DNA of 64,000 bases from an uncultured bacterium (GTDB lineage: Bacteria; Patescibacteriota; Dojkabacteria; SC72), in assembly GCA_903906305.1 (NCBI GenBank), contig CAIVJR010000007.1, positions 45,809 to 109,808 of the forward strand. The letters run 5' to 3'. A program made the position numbers and the translations under genes. The notes under the pieces are model-generated. The model was not told the origin of the DNA and did not search any database. It saw only the letters and a list, made by a program, of their open reading frames with translations. Positions 2,511-33,163 of the stretch are shown in pieces; within the stretch, counting starts at the first letter, position 1, and the number at the start of each line of letters is the position of its first letter.

Positions 2511-2817
2511 GGGCGCAAGTATTCCTAGATGATTGCTCTTGCTATTTTGGTGAGAGAGGAAAGTCCGGACTCTATGTCGGTCTCGAATATTTCGAGATAG
2601 GTGCCAGTGTGAGCTGGAAGGGAGTGATCTTTTGGTTAAAAGGGCAACAGAAAGTTATACCGCCTCGAAAGAGGTAAGGGTGAAATGGTGGTGTAAGAGA
2701 CCACCGGGTATTGTAGTAATACAATATTGCGAGGCAACCCCCACCTAGAGCAAGGTTAAAACCGCTTAGATAGATAATCATCATAAACAGAATTCGGCTT
2801 ATTGGGTGCTTGCGCAC
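2511..2817 (+). ncRNA. rnpB: RNase P RNA, bacterial type A, compact (~305 nt)
   Basis: It contains GAGGAAAGUCCGGACUC (P4 5' strand), AGGGCAACAGAAAG, GGUGAAAUGGUGGUGUAAGAGACCACC and ACAGAAUUCGGCUUA (P4 3' strand). The P1 helix pairs GCGCAAG (2513-2519) with CUUGCGC (2809-2815). Confidence 0.85.
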
Positions 2818-4889: not shown

Positions 4890-5924
4890 ATGAATATACA
4901 AGATTTTGGTAAAAAATATGTCTTTATGCCTGATGCCACTAGAGGAGCGGTTAGATTTTTGACGACTGAACAGTTAAAAGGAACTGGAACAACGGCGCTA
5001 GTTACAAATACTTTACATTTGTTAATGAATCCTGGCCCTAAAAGAATGCTGGAATTAGGTGGTATCAAGAAGCTCATGAACTGGGATGGTATTGTTTTAA
5101 CTGATTCTGGAGGATTCCAAGTATTTTCATTGATTCATTCTGGTAAATGGAAGGGTAAAGTACATGAGAATGGTGCTACATTTCATTCTCCATGGACGGG
5201 TGATGTGTATGAATTAACTCCAGAGAGTTCAATTGATATACAAATCAAAATAGGATCAGATATTTTAGTTACATTAGATGATTGTAGGGGTACTGATTTG
5301 AGTAGAGAGGATGCAGAACAATCGGTAGATAGGACAATTAAATGGGCAAAGAGGTGTAAAGATCATTTTGAAAATGTATATGGTGGTACTAAAGAGACAG
5401 GGAAACTTTTGAGTTGTGTTGTACAGGGTGCCAATTTCCCAGATTTAAGAAAGAAATGTGCAGAGGAATTAACGAAAATAGGATTTGATGGATACAACTT
5501 TGGAGGATTTGTAGTGGATAAGGATGGGGAGTTGGTGATTGATGAAATGAAAGCGGTTATAGATAATACTCCAAAGGATAAGTTTAAATATGCAATGGGA
5601 GTAGGTAAGCCTGAGGATATTCGAAGAGCTGCAAAGATTGGGTATACAGTTTTTGATACTGTACTTGTTACTAGAAATGCTAGACATGGGACTTTGTATT
5701 CTTCTGATATTGAAGATGAGGTTTTAAGGATTACCAATCAAGATTATTCTATTGATGAAAGACCTATTGATTCAAAATGTGATTGTTATACTTGCAAAAA
5801 CCATAGTAGGGCATATGTACATCAGATGTTAAAGGTTGGCGAAGCTACAGGTATGACTTTAGCTACAATACACAACTTGAGGTATTATCAAAGACTTATT
5901 GAGGACCTAAACGCAGGTCTCTAA
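4890..5924 (+). CDS. tgt: queuine tRNA-ribosyltransferase
   Basis: LTDSGGFQVFSL is present, and so is the zinc site CDCYTCKNHSRAY..H. Confidence 0.9.
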   Translation: MNIQDFGKKYVFMPDATRGAVRFLTTEQLKGTGTTALVTNTLHLLMNPGPKRMLELGGIKKLMNWDGIVLTDSGGFQVFSLIHSGKWKGKVHENGATFHSPWTGDVYELTPESSIDIQIKIGSDILVTLDDCRGTDLSREDAEQSVDRTIKWAKRCKDHFENVYGGTKETGKLLSCVVQGANFPDLRKKCAEELTKIGFDGYNFGGFVVDKDGELVIDEMKAVIDNTPKDKFKYAMGVGKPEDIRRAAKIGYTVFDTVLVTRNARHGTLYSSDIEDEVLRITNQDYSIDERPIDSKCDCYTCKNHSRAYVHQMLKVGEATGMTLATIHNLRYYQRLIEDLNAGL

Positions 5925-6140
5925 ACCTCTTCATTGAGGAATTCCCCTAAAAATGATATGATTAAAAGTCCTATGATTAAACACTTTTATACTATTGAAT
6001 GTATTTGTAATGATTATTAATTTTATGAAATCGATTTCTAATAAAATTAAAGAGAATAATTCATTAAAACGCAGCTATTCGGCTGTGTCTTTTCACAAAA
6101 GCGTTTAAGGGGACATATTAAATTTTAATTAGAGAGCATA

Positions 6141-7661
6141 ATGGAAGCATTAGCTATAATTGTTGCCATACTGGCAAGTGCTGGAGGCTCTTTCGCTGTA
6201 CTTAAATATGTATTTAAGTGGGTAAATGTAAATAAAATCCCAGAAGCAGAGATAGAAGCAGCCGCAAAGAAAATGATGAGTAAGAAGTTTGAAGAATCTG
6301 AACAGGAGCTTGCAGAACTTCGAGAGAGAGAAGAGAAAAGACTTAAGGATATGCGAAGAGAAAATACTGAGCATGAAGAAATTCTCATCGAGAGAGAAAA
6401 GACCTTAAACAAAAGATCAAAGATCTTAGATGACAAGAGTGAAGAATTAGAGACTAAGGATGGAGAATTAAAAGAAGCCATTAAAAGAACTGAAGAAACA
6501 AGAACTCAACTTAAAACTGAGTTAGAAAAGATATCAGGACTTTCAAGAGAAGAAGCTACTGAAAAATTTAAGAAAGAAATAGAAGAAGATCTTAAAGGAT
6601 TTGAAGCTCAGAAAATCAGACAAGCTGAAAAGAATATTGAAGCTGTGGCTGATGAAAAAGCACGACATATACTTGTTGATTCAATGCAGAGAGTTGCTAC
6701 AGACTATGTTGGTGAGACTACTACAAAGAGTATCAAGGTTGAAGATGAGAAAGTTAAAGGTAGAATTATCGGTAAAGAAGGTAGAAATATCAGGGCATTT
6801 GAACAGATAACAGGAGTTGATGTCATCGTTGATGAATCTCCAACATCCATAGGTTTGTCTTCATTTGATCCATTGAGAAGAGAAATAGCTTTTGTAGCTA
6901 TGACTAAACTCATAGGGGATGGAAGAATCCACCCAGGAGCTATTGAGGAATGTGTAAGAAAAGCAAAAAATGAGATTTCATTAGAAATTAAGAAAAATGG
7001 AGAAATCCTTGCTGAAGAAGCTGGATGGCCAGATATTGATCTTGGACTTTTGAAGTTAATTGGAAAGATGAAATATCGAACCAGTTATGGTCAGTCATTG
7101 ATGTCCCATACAATCGAAGTAATTAGATTGGGAGAAGTATTGGCTGCAGAAGTCGGTGCTGATGTATCTTTAGTGAAGAGAGCAGCATTGCTTCATGATG
7201 TTGGAAAAGTTTTGACTCACAAGGTTGATCTTCCTCACCACCATATCTCAGGACAGGTTGCTAGAAAGTATTTGCTAAGCGACAAGCTTGTAAATGCTAT
7301 CGAGTCACACCACTTAGATATTGAGCCTACATCTGTAGAAGCAGTTTTAGTCTATCTTGCTGATGCAATTTCTGGATCAAGACCAGGTGCAAGAAAAGAT
7401 AGCTACGAGCAGTATATACAGAGAATCGAAGGTATTGAGAATGCTGCAAAGGATGTAGCAGGTGACAAGATTGCTGACGTATTCGCAATCAGAGCTGGAA
7501 GAGAATTGAGAGTAATTGTTAAACCAATCATGGTTTCAGATGATGAAGCTAAGGTTATGGCAAAGCAAATAGCTCAAGCAATTGAGAAAACTCAAAGCTA
7601 TCCAGGCAATGTTGAAGTCACAGTTATTAGAGAAACAAGGGCAATTGAGGTAGCTAGATAA
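6141..7661 (+). CDS. rny: ribonuclease Y
   Basis: It has an N-terminal TM helix and coiled coil, a KH domain (KGRIIGKEGRNIRAFEQITGVDVIVDE) and an HD domain (LLHDVGK). Confidence 0.9.
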   Translation: MEALAIIVAILASAGGSFAVLKYVFKWVNVNKIPEAEIEAAAKKMMSKKFEESEQELAELREREEKRLKDMRRENTEHEEILIEREKTLNKRSKILDDKSEELETKDGELKEAIKRTEETRTQLKTELEKISGLSREEATEKFKKEIEEDLKGFEAQKIRQAEKNIEAVADEKARHILVDSMQRVATDYVGETTTKSIKVEDEKVKGRIIGKEGRNIRAFEQITGVDVIVDESPTSIGLSSFDPLRREIAFVAMTKLIGDGRIHPGAIEECVRKAKNEISLEIKKNGEILAEEAGWPDIDLGLLKLIGKMKYRTSYGQSLMSHTIEVIRLGEVLAAEVGADVSLVKRAALLHDVGKVLTHKVDLPHHHISGQVARKYLLSDKLVNAIESHHLDIEPTSVEAVLVYLADAISGSRPGARKDSYEQYIQRIEGIENAAKDVAGDKIADVFAIRAGRELRVIVKPIMVSDDEAKVMAKQIAQAIEKTQSYPGNVEVTVIRETRAIEVAR

Positions 7662-8475: not shown

Positions 8476-9852
8476 ATGAAGAACTTCTTTATTCCAACTG
8501 AAAAGAATAAGTACAAACCATACCTCCTACGAAAAATAGCTTTAGTTGCATATTCACTTCTACTAATCTTTGTTAATAGCTTTGGTGGAATATTCGGTAT
8601 AGATCAAGCCCAGGCTAGTAACATTTCACCTAGTAATATCATTGAATTAACCAATCAGGAAAGAGCTGCTAACGGTTTGAACACATTAAAAGAAAACTCA
8701 GCCCTTGCTGCAGCCGCATTAGCAAAGGCAAATAACATGTTTGAAGTCCAATATTGGGATCATTTTGGTCCTAATGGAGAGACCCCATGGCAATTCATAC
8801 GTGCTGAAGAATATAACTATGTGTATGCAGGAGAGAACTTAGCAAAAGGGTTTCAAACCACTGAGGGTGTACATGAAGCATGGATGGCTAGCCCAACCCA
8901 CGCTGCAAATATCATGAGTGCAAATTACAAGGATATTGGAGTCGCTGTAGTCCAAGGAACGCTTCTTGGTAAGCAAACAACCCTAGTAGTCCAGATGTTC
9001 GGAAATCTTACTACAGAGGTCGCTAGTGCCACTACAGGGGGATCTAAGACTACTACTTCGGGTGGAACTGTCATAGGAACGGAACATGGGGATATAAAGA
9101 GCATAATGATTACATCTCCAGTACAATCGTCAATATCTACTGATCCTGGTATCAATGTAGCTGGTGAGGTCAAAAATGTTGATGGTCAGTACACAGTAGA
9201 GGTATATGATCAATCAAATGTGGTAGGCGAAACATCATCGAATACTAGTAACTGGGAATTTGATAAAGAGAGTGATTGGTCAGAAGGAACTCACGTATTA
9301 AAAGCACAGATCAAAGGAGAGGAAACAGTATCTCCAAATGTAACTTTCTCTGTTGATTCTACACCCCCAATGGTTGAGACAGCCTCAATATCTGTTAAAC
9401 AAAATGGTGAAAACTATGTTTTAAGCTTTAAAATAGATGAAACTTGGGTAGACCTTCGGGTTGTAAATGGAGCTACATCAATTCCTGTAACATCTGAAAA
9501 TAAAACAGAGATCATTTTAGAAATTTCTGTTAAAGGATTAGGAAACAAAGTAGTCATAATGGCAACTGATGCACAAGGAAACATATCCCAATTAGATATA
9601 ACGGAATATTTCCCAGATGAAGAGAGTAGTAAGGGTGCAAGTATAATATTGAGTTTGGTTAACGCAAACATTGGAGATCAGATAAGTATTGGCATTGTAG
9701 CTCTAATTTTTGTATTGTTGTGTATTGAAATTTTTGTATACTGGAAGAAAGGGAAATTAAAGGATATAACAGGGGATTTATTTACAGTTGGTACATGGTG
9801 GTTAATACTTACAATTGCAATATTTAATGGGTTTACTGGTTTAATTAATTAA
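8476..9852 (+). CDS. CAP/SCP (YkwD-like) domain protein with C-terminal transmembrane helices
   Basis: It has a signal-anchor. The CAP domain motifs are LTNQERAANGL, GENLA, HEAWMASPTHAANI and YKDIGVAV. Two TM helices sit at the C-terminal end. Confidence 0.7.
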   Translation: MKNFFIPTEKNKYKPYLLRKIALVAYSLLLIFVNSFGGIFGIDQAQASNISPSNIIELTNQERAANGLNTLKENSALAAAALAKANNMFEVQYWDHFGPNGETPWQFIRAEEYNYVYAGENLAKGFQTTEGVHEAWMASPTHAANIMSANYKDIGVAVVQGTLLGKQTTLVVQMFGNLTTEVASATTGGSKTTTSGGTVIGTEHGDIKSIMITSPVQSSISTDPGINVAGEVKNVDGQYTVEVYDQSNVVGETSSNTSNWEFDKESDWSEGTHVLKAQIKGEETVSPNVTFSVDSTPPMVETASISVKQNGENYVLSFKIDETWVDLRVVNGATSIPVTSENKTEIILEISVKGLGNKVVIMATDAQGNISQLDITEYFPDEESSKGASIILSLVNANIGDQISIGIVALIFVLLCIEIFVYWKKGKLKDITGDLFTVGTWWLILTIAIFNGFTGLIN

Positions 9853-9865
9853 AATTTACTGCCCA

Positions 9866-10663
9866 GTGAAAAAATACAGGTTAAAGGTACAAAACGATAT
9901 TATATATCTATTTATACTCCTCGCCATAACGGAGTTTTTTAACTATCTCGTCCTAAATACACGAGGCGTAGGATTAATGATAACAGCAGGATTAGGAATT
10001 CTTCTTCTTGAAACATGGTTCATACGAACATTTAGTCTCTACTCTGGCAAAAAGATATCAAAATACAGTGATGTACTTGTCAAAATATCACTCAAAGATC
10101 GATTCTTTAGCTATTTTGTTCTCCCACTGATATTTTACATATCCATTCTAGCGTTCTTGTATTTCAACCGTAATTTGCTACTTGGTCATGTAGTTCTTGG
10201 TATCTGTATGGTGCTTTTCCTCATACTTTTCTTGAATGTAAAGAGCTCACTAAACAAGATATATTCGGTTGCCAATGCAACACGAGCGATCTTTGACTTC
10301 ATTTGTATTACAATTCTGTATTTACTCACAAACATATTTGTAAGAGTAGGTTTCTCAATGGTCACTTTCTCACTAATCCTCTTTGGTACTGCATTTGTAT
10401 TATTACTTTTCTCATTAAAACTACACCGAAAACTGGGATTAATGGAGATATTTGTTTCTCTGCTAAGTTCCGTATTCATATCCTGTTTTACAATCATATT
10501 CTGGAGCACAAATATTTTTGTAATTCCCCTTGTCGCAGCTTTAGGTTTCTATCTAGTTATATCAATATGGAATATCCGATTCTCAGGTAAAATACATTTG
10601 GTTGATTACTTCTTACCAATTTTGTATGTGATTCTAGCTTTAATATTAATTCTTACAATTTAA
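9866..10663 (+). CDS. polytopic membrane protein, function unknown
   Basis: There are 7-8 predicted hydrophobic helices and no recognisable motif. Confidence 0.5.
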   Translation: MKKYRLKVQNDIIYLFILLAITEFFNYLVLNTRGVGLMITAGLGILLLETWFIRTFSLYSGKKISKYSDVLVKISLKDRFFSYFVLPLIFYISILAFLYFNRNLLLGHVVLGICMVLFLILFLNVKSSLNKIYSVANATRAIFDFICITILYLLTNIFVRVGFSMVTFSLILFGTAFVLLLFSLKLHRKLGLMEIFVSLLSSVFISCFTIIFWSTNIFVIPLVAALGFYLVISIWNIRFSGKIHLVDYFLPILYVILALILILTI

Positions 10664-16855: not shown

Positions 16856-16932
16856 TGGCTCCTCGTGCGTGGGTTCGAACCCGCGACCTAGTGATTACAA
16901 TCACCCGCTCTAACCAACTGAGCTAACGAGGA
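16856..16932 (-). tRNA. tRNA, anticodon region reads GUA (Tyr); class I, irregular anticodon arm and T-stem
   Basis: On the minus strand the acceptor stem is UCCUCGU/ACGAGGA and the D-arm is UAGCUCAGUUGGUUAGAGC. The T-loop is UUCGAAC. The 3' end carries G then CCA. The anticodon arm is only 16 nt (GGUGA-UUGUAA-UCACU). The T-stem needs a bulged A to pair. Confidence 0.65.
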
Positions 16933-28681: not shown

Positions 28682-28755
28682 CGGGGCGTAGTTCAGATGG
28701 CTAGAGCGCTTGCATGGGGTGCAAGAGGTCGCACGTTCAAGTCGTGTCGCCCCGA
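28682..28755 (+). tRNA. tRNA-Pro (anticodon GGG), CCA not encoded
   Basis: The acceptor stem is CGGGGCG/CGCCCCG. The anticodon stem CUUGC/GCAAG encloses loop AUGGGGU, giving GGG. The T-arm is GCACG-UUCAAGU-CGUGU. Confidence 0.8.
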
Positions 28756-28778
28756 TATTTATTTAACCAAAAATAACA

Positions 28779-29123
28779 ATGAAATTTACTCCAGATTCAG
28801 ATTGTATGATAGTGGTATATGTCCCTTGCGAGAGTTTAGAACAAGCTGAGCACATAGGGGAACAGATTATGAAAAAGAAGTTATGTGCATGTGTGAATAT
28901 ATACAAAGATATGCAACCAATGTTCTTCTGGCCTCCTAAAACAGGAAATATAGAGAAGGGTAAAGAAGTTGTATTGCTATTGAAGAGTGTTAAATCAAAA
29001 TATGACGATATGGAAAAAGAAATAACGAAGATACATAGCTATGATGTTCCTTGTATATTTGCCATTCCAGTAATGGCAGTAGCAGATGGTTACTGGGAGT
29101 GGCTAAATGGAGAGATGGAATAA
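28779..29123 (+). CDS. cutA: divalent-cation tolerance protein CutA
   Basis: It is 114 aa. SYDVPCIFAIPV and YWEWL match the CutA1 fold signatures. Confidence 0.75.
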   Translation: MKFTPDSDCMIVVYVPCESLEQAEHIGEQIMKKKLCACVNIYKDMQPMFFWPPKTGNIEKGKEVVLLLKSVKSKYDDMEKEITKIHSYDVPCIFAIPVMAVADGYWEWLNGEME

Positions 29124-29176
29124 TTCTTTTTGTTAATTTAAATTTCTGTTAGAATTAAACAAGGAGGATAAAATAT

Positions 29177-29368
29177 ATGAGTAAACAAATAAATCAAACA
29201 AAATCGGGAAAAATTCGTGAGAAAAGAAGTGATACTTTGGTAAGAACAATTGAAAGAAAATACAACGTTGATCTTCAAGCAAGATCAGACATGAAGCTGG
29301 GGAATCTTTTAAAGGAAAAGGGCCTTCCCTCCTTGTCTAAGCTTATAAAAGAAACAAGAAAAGATTAA
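29177..29368 (+). CDS. small basic protein (63 aa), unknown function
   Basis: A strong ribosome-binding site (AAGGAGGA) lies 8 nt upstream. Its stop codon overlaps the start of the next gene as TAATG. Confidence 0.45.
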   Translation: MSKQINQTKSGKIREKRSDTLVRTIERKYNVDLQARSDMKLGNLLKEKGLPSLSKLIKETRKD

Positions 29369-29886
29369 TGGATAGCGAAATCTTTGGTTTTGTCGAAGAT
29401 ACATCTTTAAAGAATCGAATGATTGCAACACTTGAGCATGTGATTTTTTTAACGACTTTGTTAAAAAGTAAGCAAAGGAAAAAAGCGCAGTCTTATATTT
29501 ATAAAGATTGTATAGTCTACATAGCTTCCTTAATTGAGTGTGTATTAAGATACAAGATTCTTAAAGGTTTTCCAGACGAAAAATTTCCTATTAAGGATAA
29601 AGATTTTAGGGACGTAAAAGAGATACATAGACTATCCCCGGAAGAAAGAATTGTCTGGGGAATAGAAAAAAACAAAGAAATTAAAATCACAGGTGGCACA
29701 GATTTTTGTAAATTAAACGAAATAGCGAAAGATAAACTTATAATTGATTCTTCTACATTTGAAAGTTGTGAGGAAATAAGGAAATGGCGTAATACCATCC
29801 ATATTGTTGATACGGAAGAAAAAGAAATTTTCAATGAAAAAGATTTGGAAAAAGCATCTAGTACTTTGCTAAATCTTTGTAGTTAG
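29368..29886 (+). CDS. hypothetical protein with C-terminal Rx4-6H (HEPN-like) motif
   Basis: The protein is helical. The C-terminus carries EEIRKWRNTIHIV (R-x6-H, with an RN dipeptide). Confidence 0.4.
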   Translation: MDSEIFGFVEDTSLKNRMIATLEHVIFLTTLLKSKQRKKAQSYIYKDCIVYIASLIECVLRYKILKGFPDEKFPIKDKDFRDVKEIHRLSPEERIVWGIEKNKEIKITGGTDFCKLNEIAKDKLIIDSSTFESCEEIRKWRNTIHIVDTEEKEIFNEKDLEKASSTLLNLCS

Positions 29887-29909: not shown

Positions 29910-30686
29910 ATGGAAAAAAACAAAAAACGGTTACTCATAATCATAGGAATAATCCTCTCCCTCTGTATACTCATCCTTCCCATAATCCTCCTTGTAAGGG
30001 GAACATTCACTATCGTTAAAAACGTATCTTCAGGAAGTAGCAAAACCATAACCAATACAGAAGAAATAGAAAAGAAAGTAGAAGTATCTCAAAATATAGC
30101 CTGGATATCTGGTTTCAGTACAGAAGAAGTAAAAGATACAAAAGAATTAGCCCATGTAAAAATATGGGTAAATGCAAACCTCTTCCATATGGATGCAATA
30201 ACCAGTTACACAATAAAAAATATTAAGGTAGAAGGATACAAGAAAGGAAAAGTAGCAATTGTTAAACCAGGACATATCAGCAATACCCTCACTATGTACG
30301 ACTATGTATGGGGACCATATGATGGCGAAATGAAATCAGCAGAAATCAAAGACAGTGGAAAAACCTTAACCTTTGATGTAGTAGATGTAGCCCACTACTA
30401 TGACGAAGTCTCCAAAGTAGGAACCTCAATGCCAACATGGGGTATCTTCCTAAAGGAATTAGGTGAATACAATTACAGAAAAATAATGGACAATTCAGGA
30501 CTGTTTGATAGTGAGAAGATATTGGAATATGCAGATGTGCAACCCAATGATCTCAATATATCTTTCTCTTTTGATGTAGAGATGGTATTTGAAGATGGAA
30601 CTAAATGGGTAAAAAGATTCTCTGCAGAATTAGATGGTGCAAAGATAGTAGAAAACAACAGCTATATGGTCGATCTTAGTTACTAG
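29910..30686 (+). CDS. membrane-anchored hypothetical protein
   Basis: An N-terminal TM helix is followed by a roughly 220-aa soluble domain. It lies immediately upstream of RuBisCO. Confidence 0.5.
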   Translation: MEKNKKRLLIIIGIILSLCILILPIILLVRGTFTIVKNVSSGSSKTITNTEEIEKKVEVSQNIAWISGFSTEEVKDTKELAHVKIWVNANLFHMDAITSYTIKNIKVEGYKKGKVAIVKPGHISNTLTMYDYVWGPYDGEMKSAEIKDSGKTLTFDVVDVAHYYDEVSKVGTSMPTWGIFLKELGEYNYRKIMDNSGLFDSEKILEYADVQPNDLNISFSFDVEMVFEDGTKWVKRFSAELDGAKIVENNSYMVDLSY

Positions 30687-30743: not shown

Positions 30744-32150
30744 ATGCAAAAAGAATATATTCAGATAGGGAATCCTAATGTCTTTAATGGCCAATATATG
30801 TTGGCTGTATTTAGATTACAAGGAGAGGAAGGAATGACACTTGTAGATACAGCAAGTGAAGTCGCAGCTGAATCATCTACTGGATCATTTGTTAAGATAG
30901 GAACAGCAACTGCTTTTTCAGAAAGCTTAGATGCTTTGGTATATCGAATAGATGAGAAAAATAACCTCGTATGGATAGCATACCCATGGAGAATATTTGA
31001 TAGGGGTGGAAATGTTCAAAACATCATGACCTTCATTGCCGGAAATGTCTTTGGTATGGCAAGTGTAAAGGTGTGTAAAATCCTAGATGTATATTTCCCG
31101 CCACAAATGTTAGTACAGTACGATGGACCAGAATATACCATTGATGATATGAGAAAATATTTAAATATTCAGGAAAGACCAATATTTGGAAGTATCATTA
31201 AACCAAAGATTGGGTTAACCTCTTCGGAATATGCAGAACTCTGCTATGACTTCTGGTCAGGAGGTGGTGATTTTGTTAAAAATGACGAGCCACAAGCAGA
31301 CCAAGACTTTTGCCCATACGACAAGATGGTACAGGATGTAAGACATGCAATGGACAGAGTAGAACAGGAAACAGGTAAAACTAAAGTCCATTCCTTCAAT
31401 ATATCTTCCTCGGATTACGATACCATGATTAAGAAGGCCGACTATATCCAATCTATGATGAAACCAGGAAGCTATGCATTCTTAGTAGATGGTATAACCG
31501 CAGGGTGGATGGCAATACAAACCATTAGAAGAAAATATCCGAATGTATTCCTACACTTCCATAGAGCAGGACATGGAGCATTTACAAGAGATGAAAATCC
31601 AATAGGGTATACAGTTCCCGTATTAACTAAATTTGCTAGACTAGCAGGTGCTTCAGGTATTCATACTGGCACAGCAGGTATCGGAAAGATGGCTGGATCT
31701 CCAAAAGAGGATGTCATGGCTGCAAATCATTCATTAAGATTGTATTCAGAGGGTGATTACTTTAAGCAGATTTGGTCTGAGATTCCAGAGAAGGATGCTG
31801 ATTTACAATTAGCTATACAGAAAGAAGCTCAAGGTGAAGATTACAGCAACCTTGGATATTGGAGAATAACTAAGAAGATGTGCCCAATTATTTCTGGCGG
31901 TCTAAATCCATTACTTGTTGGAGAATTCATAGATACAGTAGGAACTCAAGATTTCATAACTACAATGGGAGCTGGTGTACACTCACATCCAATGGGAACA
32001 AAAGCTGGCGCAACTGCTGTACTACAAGCATATGAGGCATGGAAGCAGAAAATATCTTTGGAAGAATATGCTAAGGACAAGGAAGAACTAAGAGTGGCTA
32101 TAGATTTCTATACCAAGCACGAGGTTCCACATCCTGATAAACAGGTTTAA
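30744..32150 (+). CDS. rbcL: ribulose-1,5-bisphosphate carboxylase/oxygenase large subunit, form II/III
   Basis: It has the activation and active-site motifs GGGDFVKNDE, HFHRAGHG, GGLNP and MGAGVHSHP. At 468 aa it lacks a form I N-terminal extension, and no small-subunit gene is present. Confidence 0.9.
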   Translation: MQKEYIQIGNPNVFNGQYMLAVFRLQGEEGMTLVDTASEVAAESSTGSFVKIGTATAFSESLDALVYRIDEKNNLVWIAYPWRIFDRGGNVQNIMTFIAGNVFGMASVKVCKILDVYFPPQMLVQYDGPEYTIDDMRKYLNIQERPIFGSIIKPKIGLTSSEYAELCYDFWSGGGDFVKNDEPQADQDFCPYDKMVQDVRHAMDRVEQETGKTKVHSFNISSSDYDTMIKKADYIQSMMKPGSYAFLVDGITAGWMAIQTIRRKYPNVFLHFHRAGHGAFTRDENPIGYTVPVLTKFARLAGASGIHTGTAGIGKMAGSPKEDVMAANHSLRLYSEGDYFKQIWSEIPEKDADLQLAIQKEAQGEDYSNLGYWRITKKMCPIISGGLNPLLVGEFIDTVGTQDFITTMGAGVHSHPMGTKAGATAVLQAYEAWKQKISLEEYAKDKEELRVAIDFYTKHEVPHPDKQV

Positions 32151-33163
32151 TCAAAAAGTCCTGTAATGGATTTTCTTTGATTTACTCGGCTAATGGCTTC
32201 TGCGAAGTAACTGGCAATTGAGACCTCTTTAAACCATTTTGCAGATTTCATAAATTCTTTGGAATGATATGTACTATCTGTTCCAATCACTAAATCTAAA
32301 TATCCTTTGTCATATGCTTCTTGGAATCTTTCAAAAGCAGGTCCATTGAAAAGCGCGTGTGTACAAACAGCTATAACCTTTTTTGCTCCCATATTCTTTG
32401 TCTCTTCTAATGCTTTTACTAATGTTCCACCAGTACAGATCATATCATCAACAATATATACATCCTTTCCACTTACATCTCCTAGGATAGACATTTTGTC
32501 TACAGTATTTGCTTTGCAATAGTTTCGAGCTTTGTATGTAAATGCAATATCAGTTTTCAAGGTTTGGGCATAGTGATTAGCACGTTTTGCACCTCCTAAA
32601 TCGGTAGGCATGATGACGGTATTTTCTTTGTCTTCAATCATCTTCTTTAATACTGGAATCAATACATATCCTCCCATGAGATTATCTATCTTTGCCCGTC
32701 TAAAGAATCCTTGGATTGCCGAGTTGTGTAAATCTACAGTTACCACATGGTCTACACTTCCATCACCTTCTAGCTCGTATGCTATTCTAGCTGCAGTAAT
32801 CCCCTCTCTTCCTGATTGCTTATCCTGTCTTGCATATGGATATGATGGTAATACCGTGGTTATTCTCTCGGCATCACATCTTCTACACGCATCTACCATG
32901 GTATACAATGCTCTGAGATTTTCATCGGTACTTTTTCCTTCTGAATGGTTCTCACAATCTTGGATAATGAAGACGTCCTTGCCTCTAATACTTTCATTAA
33001 TTATCGTTTTTACTTCTGTACTGGCAAAATGCATCTCTTCTGAATCAATGAGATGTACCTCTTCACCATGCTTTTTCTTTAATTCCTTTTCTATTCTCTT
33101 CGCAAAACTTAATCCAGATGCACAGGCCAATATCGAGAGTGGAGCTTTGGGTGTAGGAGTCAT
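32147..33163 (-). CDS. prs: ribose-phosphate pyrophosphokinase (PRPP synthetase)
   Basis: KDVFIIQDC, PYARQDK, DLHNSAIQGFF and YIVDDMICTGGT are present. The 3' end is convergent with rbcL and overlaps it by 4 nt. Confidence 0.85.
   Translation of the reverse strand: MTPTPKAPLSILACASGLSFAKRIEKELKKKHGEEVHLIDSEEMHFASTEVKTIINESIRGKDVFIIQDCENHSEGKSTDENLRALYTMVDACRRCDAERITTVLPSYPYARQDKQSGREGITAARIAYELEGDGSVDHVVTVDLHNSAIQGFFRRAKIDNLMGGYVLIPVLKKMIEDKENTVIMPTDLGGAKRANHYAQTLKTDIAFTYKARNYCKANTVDKMSILGDVSGKDVYIVDDMICTGGTLVKALEETKNMGAKKVIAVCTHALFNGPAFERFQEAYDKGYLDLVIGTDSTYHSKEFMKSAKWFKEVSIASYFAEAISRVNQRKSITGLFD

Follow-up and report, generated by a model that had tools for sequence, protein, structure and literature searches.

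A candidate two-gene toxin–antitoxin or abortive-infection module with a predicted HEPN ribonuclease and a small basic partner in a Dojkabacteria genome

Introduction

HEPN ribonucleases (RNases) are central effectors of toxin–antitoxin, abortive-infection, CRISPR and restriction–modification (R-M)-linked defence. We report here an adjacent pair of genes, encoding a basic protein of 63 amino acids (aa) and a 172-aa HEPN-fold protein, in a 64,000-nucleotide (nt) stretch of DNA from an uncultured bacterium (GenBank assembly GCA_903906305.1, contig CAIVJR010000007.1, positions 45,809–109,808 of the forward strand). This stretch is called the window, and coordinates refer to it unless another locus is named. 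The host belongs to candidate division WS6 (Dojkabacteria, Patescibacteria), and near-identical small proteins are on record from WS6 metagenome-assembled genomes (MAGs). The same pair was found in more than 100 other genomes. We consider that the two genes probably form a self-contained toxin–antitoxin or abortive-infection module with a predicted HEPN RNase (probability about 0.7).

The HEPN domain is defined as an up-down bundle of four helices, in which inserts between helices 2 and 3 are common. An Rx4-6H motif lies at the end of helix 3, a polar residue directly follows its Arg, and a conserved acidic residue of helix 2, typically within Ex3[KR], is located close to the motif (Anantharaman et al., 2013; PMC3710099). 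The DUF4145 family (PF13643) has been linked to R-M operons and TIR (PMC3710099). In the DUF4145 protein RAZR (PD-T7-4), R146 and H154 are experimentally required, a small N-terminal sensor is fused to the HEPN domain, and the protein is non-toxic alone. The present pair resembles DUF4145 and RAZR in the HEPN fold, in a non-canonical Arg–His spacing, in the links to R-M operons and TIR, and in the combination of a small module of ~65 aa with an RNase. The spacing is, however, R-N-x2-H here and Rx7H in RAZR, and a long beta-hairpin is located between helices 2 and 3 here. The small module is separate, Cys-free and basic, whereas that of RAZR is a fused zinc ribbon. Neither window protein matched a Pfam model in the hidden Markov model searches. 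Of the 60 aligned members of the HEPN family, 57 (the window protein included) have no match to the DUF4145 model, and the window protein does not reach its Pfam gathering score. The other three match it weakly (best E = 1.3e-4), DUF4145 being the sole Pfam family touched with more than one member, and a DUF4145 domain was pre-annotated in one of 55 clusters.

In the HepT–MntA system (HEPN-MNT, DUF86, type II/VII), the partner of the HEPN protein carries a nucleotidyltransferase (MNT) domain. The partner described here has 63 residues, is basic and lacks this domain, so that neutralisation by AMPylation is impossible. The RX4HXY motif of HepT with its modified Tyr is also absent, the corresponding motif being RNTIHIV with no HxY. 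The HepT-like model (PF01934) was matched weakly by one of the 60 members (E = 0.009). With no MNT partner and no RX4HXY, the pair falls outside HepT–MntA.

HEPN RNases within R-M operons are an established theme, as seen for PrrC, ApeA, DUF4145 and Ymh-paraMORC. PrrC-type genes lie between hsdS and hsdR of type I R-M operons, where a second line of defence has been proposed or shown. The present pair resembles PrrC/RloC, ApeA and Ymh-paraMORC in that the HEPN gene can be located in an R-M operon, in the orders HsdS-[pair]-HsdR and Mod-[pair]-Res. Unlike the PrrC/RloC group, it has no ABC or GHKL ATPase regulatory domain but a separate small protein, and most copies, that of the window included, lie outside R-M operons. 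RnlA and LsoA are multidomain proteins of ~350 aa whose antitoxin gene is located downstream. Library scans with both window proteins detected no sequence similarity to RnlA–RnlB or LsoA–LsoB.

Both proteins are "hypothetical protein" in all database sources, and neither falls within a Pfam, NCBIfam, PADLOC or PHROG family. When whole families were scanned against PADLOC and NCBIfam, only scattered matches of single members were obtained. In the literature searched, the coverage of which is incomplete, we found no description of the pair. Two-gene or R-M-linked modules with a HEPN RNase as the toxin are already well known. The HEPN family with its R-x3-H motif and beta-hairpin insert, the small partner, and the reuse of this partner with TIR effectors are new. 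The pair thus adds a HEPN family that the libraries do not recognise, with a strictly invariant, shortened R-N-x2-H motif and a partner unlike MNT, RnlB or the ATPase regulators. As the partner also accompanies TIR, its role could expose regulatory logic common to unrelated immune effectors. The module occurs chiefly in Patescibacteria (the Candidate Phyla Radiation), which have tiny genomes, and a two-gene cassette of ~700 base pairs that is tractable in experiments would give practical access to the conflict systems of these organisms.

The 172-aa HEPN-fold protein

The 172-aa protein is encoded at 29368–29886 on the + strand. No match was found in Pfam (E <= 1), NCBIfam, PADLOC or PHROGs, and single-sequence and profile searches of the PDB gave nothing significant. 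A word-indexed search returned only the protein itself and a relative with 74% identity. An exhaustive HMMER search detected 205 representative clusters at E <= 1e-3, with 54 at E <= 1e-10, and most cluster lengths are 170–215 aa among the matches listed. Searches of plasmids with the HEPN protein gave no match. We aligned 60 sequences, the members of which are 21–37% identical to the query except for the 74% relative. Using this alignment, AlphaFold2 gave a model with a mean per-residue confidence (pLDDT) of 94.7 and a predicted template-modelling score (pTM) of 0.87. The model from a two-sequence alignment (pLDDT 61.7) was left out of the fold searches.

The model consists of helices 12–31 and 38–67, a beta-hairpin at 72–106, a short helix at 113–122, and helices 128–145 and 157–171. 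It forms a four-helix up-down bundle, and the beta-hairpin (codons at 29581–29685) is the insert between core helices 2 and 3. The model thus assigns the 172-aa protein to the HEPN fold, within a family that has no name. A search of the viral fold database BFVD with the model gave nothing significant.

The invariant columns of the 60-sequence alignment are M1, E57, R141, N142 and H145. E57 (codon at 29536–29538) is the invariant acidic residue of core helix 2 and lies within helix 38–67. It forms E57-x3-R61 in the window protein, and position +4 from E57 is variable across the family. The residues R141-N142-T143-I144-H145 (codons at 29788–29802, within residues 135–147, EEIRKWRNTIHIV) are located at the C-terminal end of helix 128–145, that is, at the end of core helix 3, where a HEPN motif is expected. 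N142 is the polar residue directly after the Arg. R-N-x-x-H and E57 are also present in all of the 101 non-identical pairs that were collected independently. The first-pass annotation of this DNA had predicted a helical protein with a C-terminal Rx4-6H motif and had likened it to HEPN RNases. The helical HEPN core stood, but it carries the long beta-hairpin. The invariant Arg is R141, and the Arg of the first-pass annotation, R138, which would give Rx6H, is present in just 68 of the 101 pairs. Judged from the alignments, the motif of the family is R-x3-H, for which no earlier report as a HEPN motif was found in the literature searched. The fold and the invariant E, R, N and H residues suggest that the 172-aa protein is a metal-independent RNase effector with its catalytic motif at R141–H145; the geometry of the site is judged from secondary-structure positions.

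In two MAGs labelled Peribacteria, the HEPN open reading frame (ORF) is in two pieces (L007, 436–993; L047, 721–1141). A frameshift, a pseudogene or an alternative genetic code might explain the split.

The 63-aa basic protein

The 63-aa gene is located at 29177–29368 (+). Its product is basic, as had been noticed at first reading, with an isoelectric point of 10.3 and 17 Lys and Arg residues. The family comprises 70 clusters of 52–81 aa with the core IRxKRSDTxVGTIEKKYGVDFGVRSDMKLGNxLKExGxPSLSKLLK, which corresponds to approximately residues 14–58 of the window protein. Two segments within residues ~16–52, KRxDTKVxTIEKKYGVD and VRSDMKLGNYLKxKGYP, form an internal repeat of ~19 residues. Self-comparison of the family profile peaks at offset 19 alone, and this score was reached by 5 of 1000 column shuffles. 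To judge by this pattern, a ~19-residue unit appears to be duplicated in tandem in the core.

No match to the 63-aa protein was found in Pfam, NCBIfam, PADLOC, PHROGs or the PDB, and the small protein had none among INPHARED phages. The PDB entries of MBD4 and FADD were returned at E ~0.6–0.8 and were taken as chance. One match was obtained in the plasmid search.

Pairing, distribution and conservation

In 59 of 80 reference-genome loci found via the small family, a member of the HEPN family is encoded directly downstream on the same strand. The intergenic gaps at these 59 loci range from -32 to +20 nt, with a mode of -4. In the opposite direction, 57 of 60 metagenome loci that were found via the HEPN family and have room upstream carry the small gene immediately upstream. 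In one of the three exceptions (L092) the small gene is present and its start is not callable, so that at least 58 of the 60 are paired. The HEPN gene is hardly ever found unaccompanied by the small gene, while the small gene also occurs with no HEPN gene beside it.

The mean pairwise identity over the 101 pairs is 0.58 for the small protein and 0.30 for the HEPN protein. Pairwise identity in one protein is correlated with that in the other (Spearman 0.63), as would be expected if the two are inherited as a unit. Pattern scans gave at least 134 matches in 185,579 species representatives. The carriers are mostly Patescibacteria of many classes; the labels of some MAGs ("Pseudomonadales", "archaeon") may stem from binning errors. 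One MAG has two copies of the pair (L047, L049).

Conservation across relatives, which the first-pass annotation had left to be checked, was found within WS6. A relative (loci L001–L003) keeps cutA, the 63-aa gene and the 172-aa gene, and the amino-acid identities to it are 87% for the 63-aa protein and 74% for the 172-aa protein. Synteny of the cutA-63-172 block, amid housekeeping genes, extends to at least three related WS6 genomes. Between the window and the relative, the ratios of nonsynonymous to synonymous substitution (dN/dS, Nei–Gojobori) are ~0.03 for the 63-aa gene, ~0.06 for the 172-aa gene, 0.06 for cutA and 0.06 for RuBisCO; they are approximate, as synonymous sites are saturated (proportion of synonymous differences, pS, about 0.70). 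These results show that both ORFs are real genes under purifying selection. The saturation at synonymous sites also shows that it is the proteins, rather than an RNA element, that are constrained, and RNA-level conservation was rejected as the cause of the conservation of the 63-aa gene.

Genomic contexts and other partners of the small protein

By raw count, the immediate neighbours of the 59 pairs are rich in R-M parts, namely ResIII (13), Methylase_S (5), EcoEI_R_C (5), N6_N4_Mtase (4) and MmeI. The order HsdS-[pair]-HsdR is found at L036, L039, L042, L055 and L082, and Mod-[pair]-Res at L008, L018 and L022. Pairs accompany MmeI-type enzymes at L021 and L063 and serine recombinases at L016 and L020. 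According to single-query phmmer searches, at least 14 of the 59 genome loci have R-M genes in their 4-kilobase flanks.

At three loci (L026, L043 and L048), a Schlafen-type helicase (703 aa) with an S24 peptidase lies directly upstream of the pair. Proteins of ~700 aa with a Schlafen group 3 helicase and a C-terminal S24 peptidase are located at L026 1364–3472, L043 2140–3867, L048 1873–3894 and L017 1780–2388. They were also matched in L032 and L038, and some are near solo small genes. These proteins may be a further defence partner.

The small protein has partners besides the HEPN family. One branch with an N-terminal DAPGMRGYRSRN extension is found alone or directly upstream of hsdM (L066, L069, L083). 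Another form, whose sequence begins with the conserved core, has a ThsB-type TIR domain (PF08937, E = 9e-18) as its fusion partner, and these fusions sit in ThsB_TIR–SLATT/DUF4231 operons. The gene order there is ThsB_TIR, SLATT/DUF4231 and the fusion (L085, 3140–4567; L057, 2418–4576); L085 is an IMG/VR contig classed as viral. On a viral contig, the small protein precedes a Ymh-domain protein, which belongs to a different HEPN family. On the conjugative plasmid pBBta01, the small gene is located 11 nt upstream of a separate TIR gene, and further TIR, caspase-family, Fic and ImmA/IrrE genes surround it. All of these further settings are conflict-system contexts.

Proposed mechanism and alternative explanations

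The layout of the pair is that of a generic type II toxin–antitoxin system, with small, adjacent, co-directional and coupled genes that co-occur in varied contexts. The toxin–antitoxin or abortive-infection character suggested by the first reading is supported by the fold, the invariant residues, the pairing and the genomic contexts. In the proposed mechanism, the 172-aa protein would be a HEPN-fold, metal-independent endoribonuclease with an active site formed by E57 of helix 2 together with H145 and R141/N142, which lie where core helix 3 ends. It would probably be a dimer like other HEPN RNases. Owing to the TAATG coupling of the two genes, the small basic protein would be translated ahead of the RNase and at a constant ratio to it, and would bind the RNase as an obligate regulatory subunit, most likely keeping it inactive. 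A trigger, for example phage infection or loss of the partner, would free RNA cleavage and lead to growth arrest. Copies inside type I and type III R-M operons, between methylase or specificity genes and restriction genes, may act as a second line of defence like PrrC, whereas the window copy is stand-alone and vertically inherited. Type II modules follow an antitoxin-first rule of gene order. An inhibitory, antitoxin-like role of the small protein is favoured because it is encoded first and because the HEPN gene is almost never without it; by analogy, we favour the small protein as the inhibitor of the HEPN protein.

Several points weigh against this interpretation. RNase activity, toxicity and neutralisation, as well as direct binding and the direction of regulation, are what we infer. 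The Foldseek probabilities for the model are 0.96–0.99, yet the E-values are weak (>= 0.04). The invariant spacing R-x3-H lies outside the canonical Rx4-6H, although this is no strong argument against catalysis because the spacing in RAZR (R146/H154) is also non-canonical. The partner is much more conserved than the RNase, whereas most type II antitoxins show the opposite, and its conservation is unlike that of fast-evolving phage sensors. As it fits neither a typical antitoxin nor a sensor of phage proteins, this high conservation may point to a ligand that is itself conserved, for instance a nucleic acid or a host machine. The pair is not represented among the PADLOC models. About three-quarters of the pairs, that of the window included, lie outside recognisable defence neighbourhoods, and the stable synteny of the WS6 pair among housekeeping genes, with dN/dS values like that of RuBisCO, fits a housekeeping role too.

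Such a role was kept as an alternative, as the window copy stands alone among housekeeping genes. The HEPN protein would then be a dedicated endonuclease that matures or turns over ribosomal, transfer or messenger RNA in the reduced genomes of Patescibacteria, and the small protein its RNA-binding cofactor. The synteny of cutA-63-172, the dN/dS values near those of RuBisCO and cutA, the very high conservation of the basic protein and the lack of obvious defence neighbours for the majority of pairs are consistent with this. Eukaryotic HEPN proteins such as Las1, Ire1 and Swt1 also process RNA (PMC3710099). Against it, however, the distribution counted by the pattern scans is patchy. The neighbourhoods also differ between lineages, with repeated insertion in R-M operons and beside recombinases, and one MAG has two copies. 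The small domain moreover occurs on a conjugative plasmid, and TIR effectors in SLATT, caspase and Fic settings have it as a fusion or as a neighbour. We regard housekeeping RNA processing as improbable. Slightly less improbable, but still unlikely, is that the small protein is a sensor, activator or targeting subunit, as in a split RAZR, and that the HEPN protein alone is inert. The N-terminal fusion of the small domain to a ThsB-type TIR is a typical sensor–effector arrangement, the domain serves two HEPN families as well as TIR, and stand-alone small genes exist. The nearest sequence family is moreover DUF4145, whose member RAZR is activated via its small N-terminal domain. High conservation is unexpected, however, for a protein that recognises diverse and fast-evolving phage proteins, and a tightly coupled gene that lies upstream is what one expects under the antitoxin-first rule. 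The pair might also be a regulator of transcription or RNA with a non-catalytic HEPN domain that binds a ligand or RNA, as in MtlR or the HEPN domains of nucleotidyltransferases. Such domains have typically lost the R/H motif (PMC3710099), whereas R, N, H and the helix-2 Glu are kept throughout the pairs here, and the active RNase RAZR likewise has a non-canonical spacing. This explanation is very improbable.

Within the toxin–antitoxin or abortive-infection interpretation, the small protein may be regarded as a reusable control module, since its domain is also found in front of TIR effectors or fused to them, and in front of another HEPN family. In a broader form, which we put forward tentatively, the 63-aa protein would be a widely shared, unnamed control module of immune effectors. 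This two-repeat basic mini-domain, as a subunit or an N-terminal fusion, would gate at least three effector types, namely the new HEPN family, Ymh-type HEPN and ThsB-type TIR. If this is correct, the high conservation would reflect the monitoring of a conserved cellular component instead of a phage protein, as in a guard-type switch, and the small protein with the R-x3-H HEPN would be among the commonest dedicated defence modules of Patescibacteria.

The locus in the window and in WS6 relatives

The first-pass annotation had described a tRNA gene followed on the same strand by three small genes, and ARAGORN, Pfam and the ORF list agree with this. The tRNA-Pro(GGG) is located at 28682–28755 (+) and was identified by ARAGORN and by a local Rfam scan (53.8 bits); the whole-window Rfam scan at the gathering threshold missed it through a filter effect. 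It is followed by cutA at 28779–29123 (+; Pfam CutA1, E = 5.5e-27). The ribosome-binding site noticed in front of the 63-aa gene is the near-consensus Shine–Dalgarno sequence AAGGAGGA at 29161–29168 (+), 8 nt before the ATG at 29177. The TAATG overlap of the last two genes was likewise recovered at 29364–29368 (+), with the 172-aa ORF beginning within it at 29368, and the junction is identical in the relative L001. The promoter and terminator scan found none on the + strand. An inverted repeat of 13 nt with 92% complementarity (29155–29167 and 29328–29340) connects the Shine–Dalgarno region with the 3' coding part of the 63-aa gene. It is absent from L001 and was put down, probably, to chance.

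On the 3' side of the pair lie a 258-aa protein, a RuBisCO large-subunit homologue and a ribose-phosphate pyrophosphokinase-like gene. The 258-aa protein (29910–30686) has an N-terminal hydrophobic segment, in line with the membrane-anchored protein upstream of RuBisCO that had been described. The RuBisCO homologue and the ribose-phosphate pyrophosphokinase-like gene are convergent (30744–33163), and the arrangement is kept in the relative. The arrangement may be connected with a function of RuBisCO in nucleoside salvage in such organisms.

The locus had also been called a tRNA-adjacent mini-island, and this part did not hold. The GC content of the pair is 0.30–0.32, unremarkable against 0.30–0.40 nearby. 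A search at the locus for a tRNA-derived direct (att-like) repeat found none, and no integrase is present among the neighbours of the window pair. With no composition shift and with the block syntenic in relatives, a tRNA-linked genomic island was rejected. In L001, a 604-aa TPR gene (5459–7273, -) is located between tRNA-Pro and cutA, where the window has only positions 28756–28778, and a 591-aa ABC transporter gene (8584–10359, +) takes the place of the 258-aa protein gene. The cutA-63-172 block is intact in L001 despite these indels on both flanks. We considered cutA as a third component and rejected it, since it adjoins the pair in WS6 relatives only and is not among the immediate neighbours of the pair outside WS6. 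As the flanks vary and cutA is a WS6-specific neighbour, the two-gene pair is the unit, and the tRNA and cutA are mere neighbours outside the module.

Other features of the window

A tRNA whose identity ARAGORN left undetermined is located at 16856–16932 (-; Rfam 38.9 bits). ARAGORN gave it a two-base "anticodon" (gt), and its anticodon loop may be unusual. The DUF3800-IX RNA motif (RF02968) occurs twice on the - strand, at 54375–54446 and 55151–55222, with 56–59 bits and ~780 nt apart. A shortened bacterial class A RNase P RNA is present at 2515–2817 (+), with 303 nt against the 367 positions of the model (153.5 bits).
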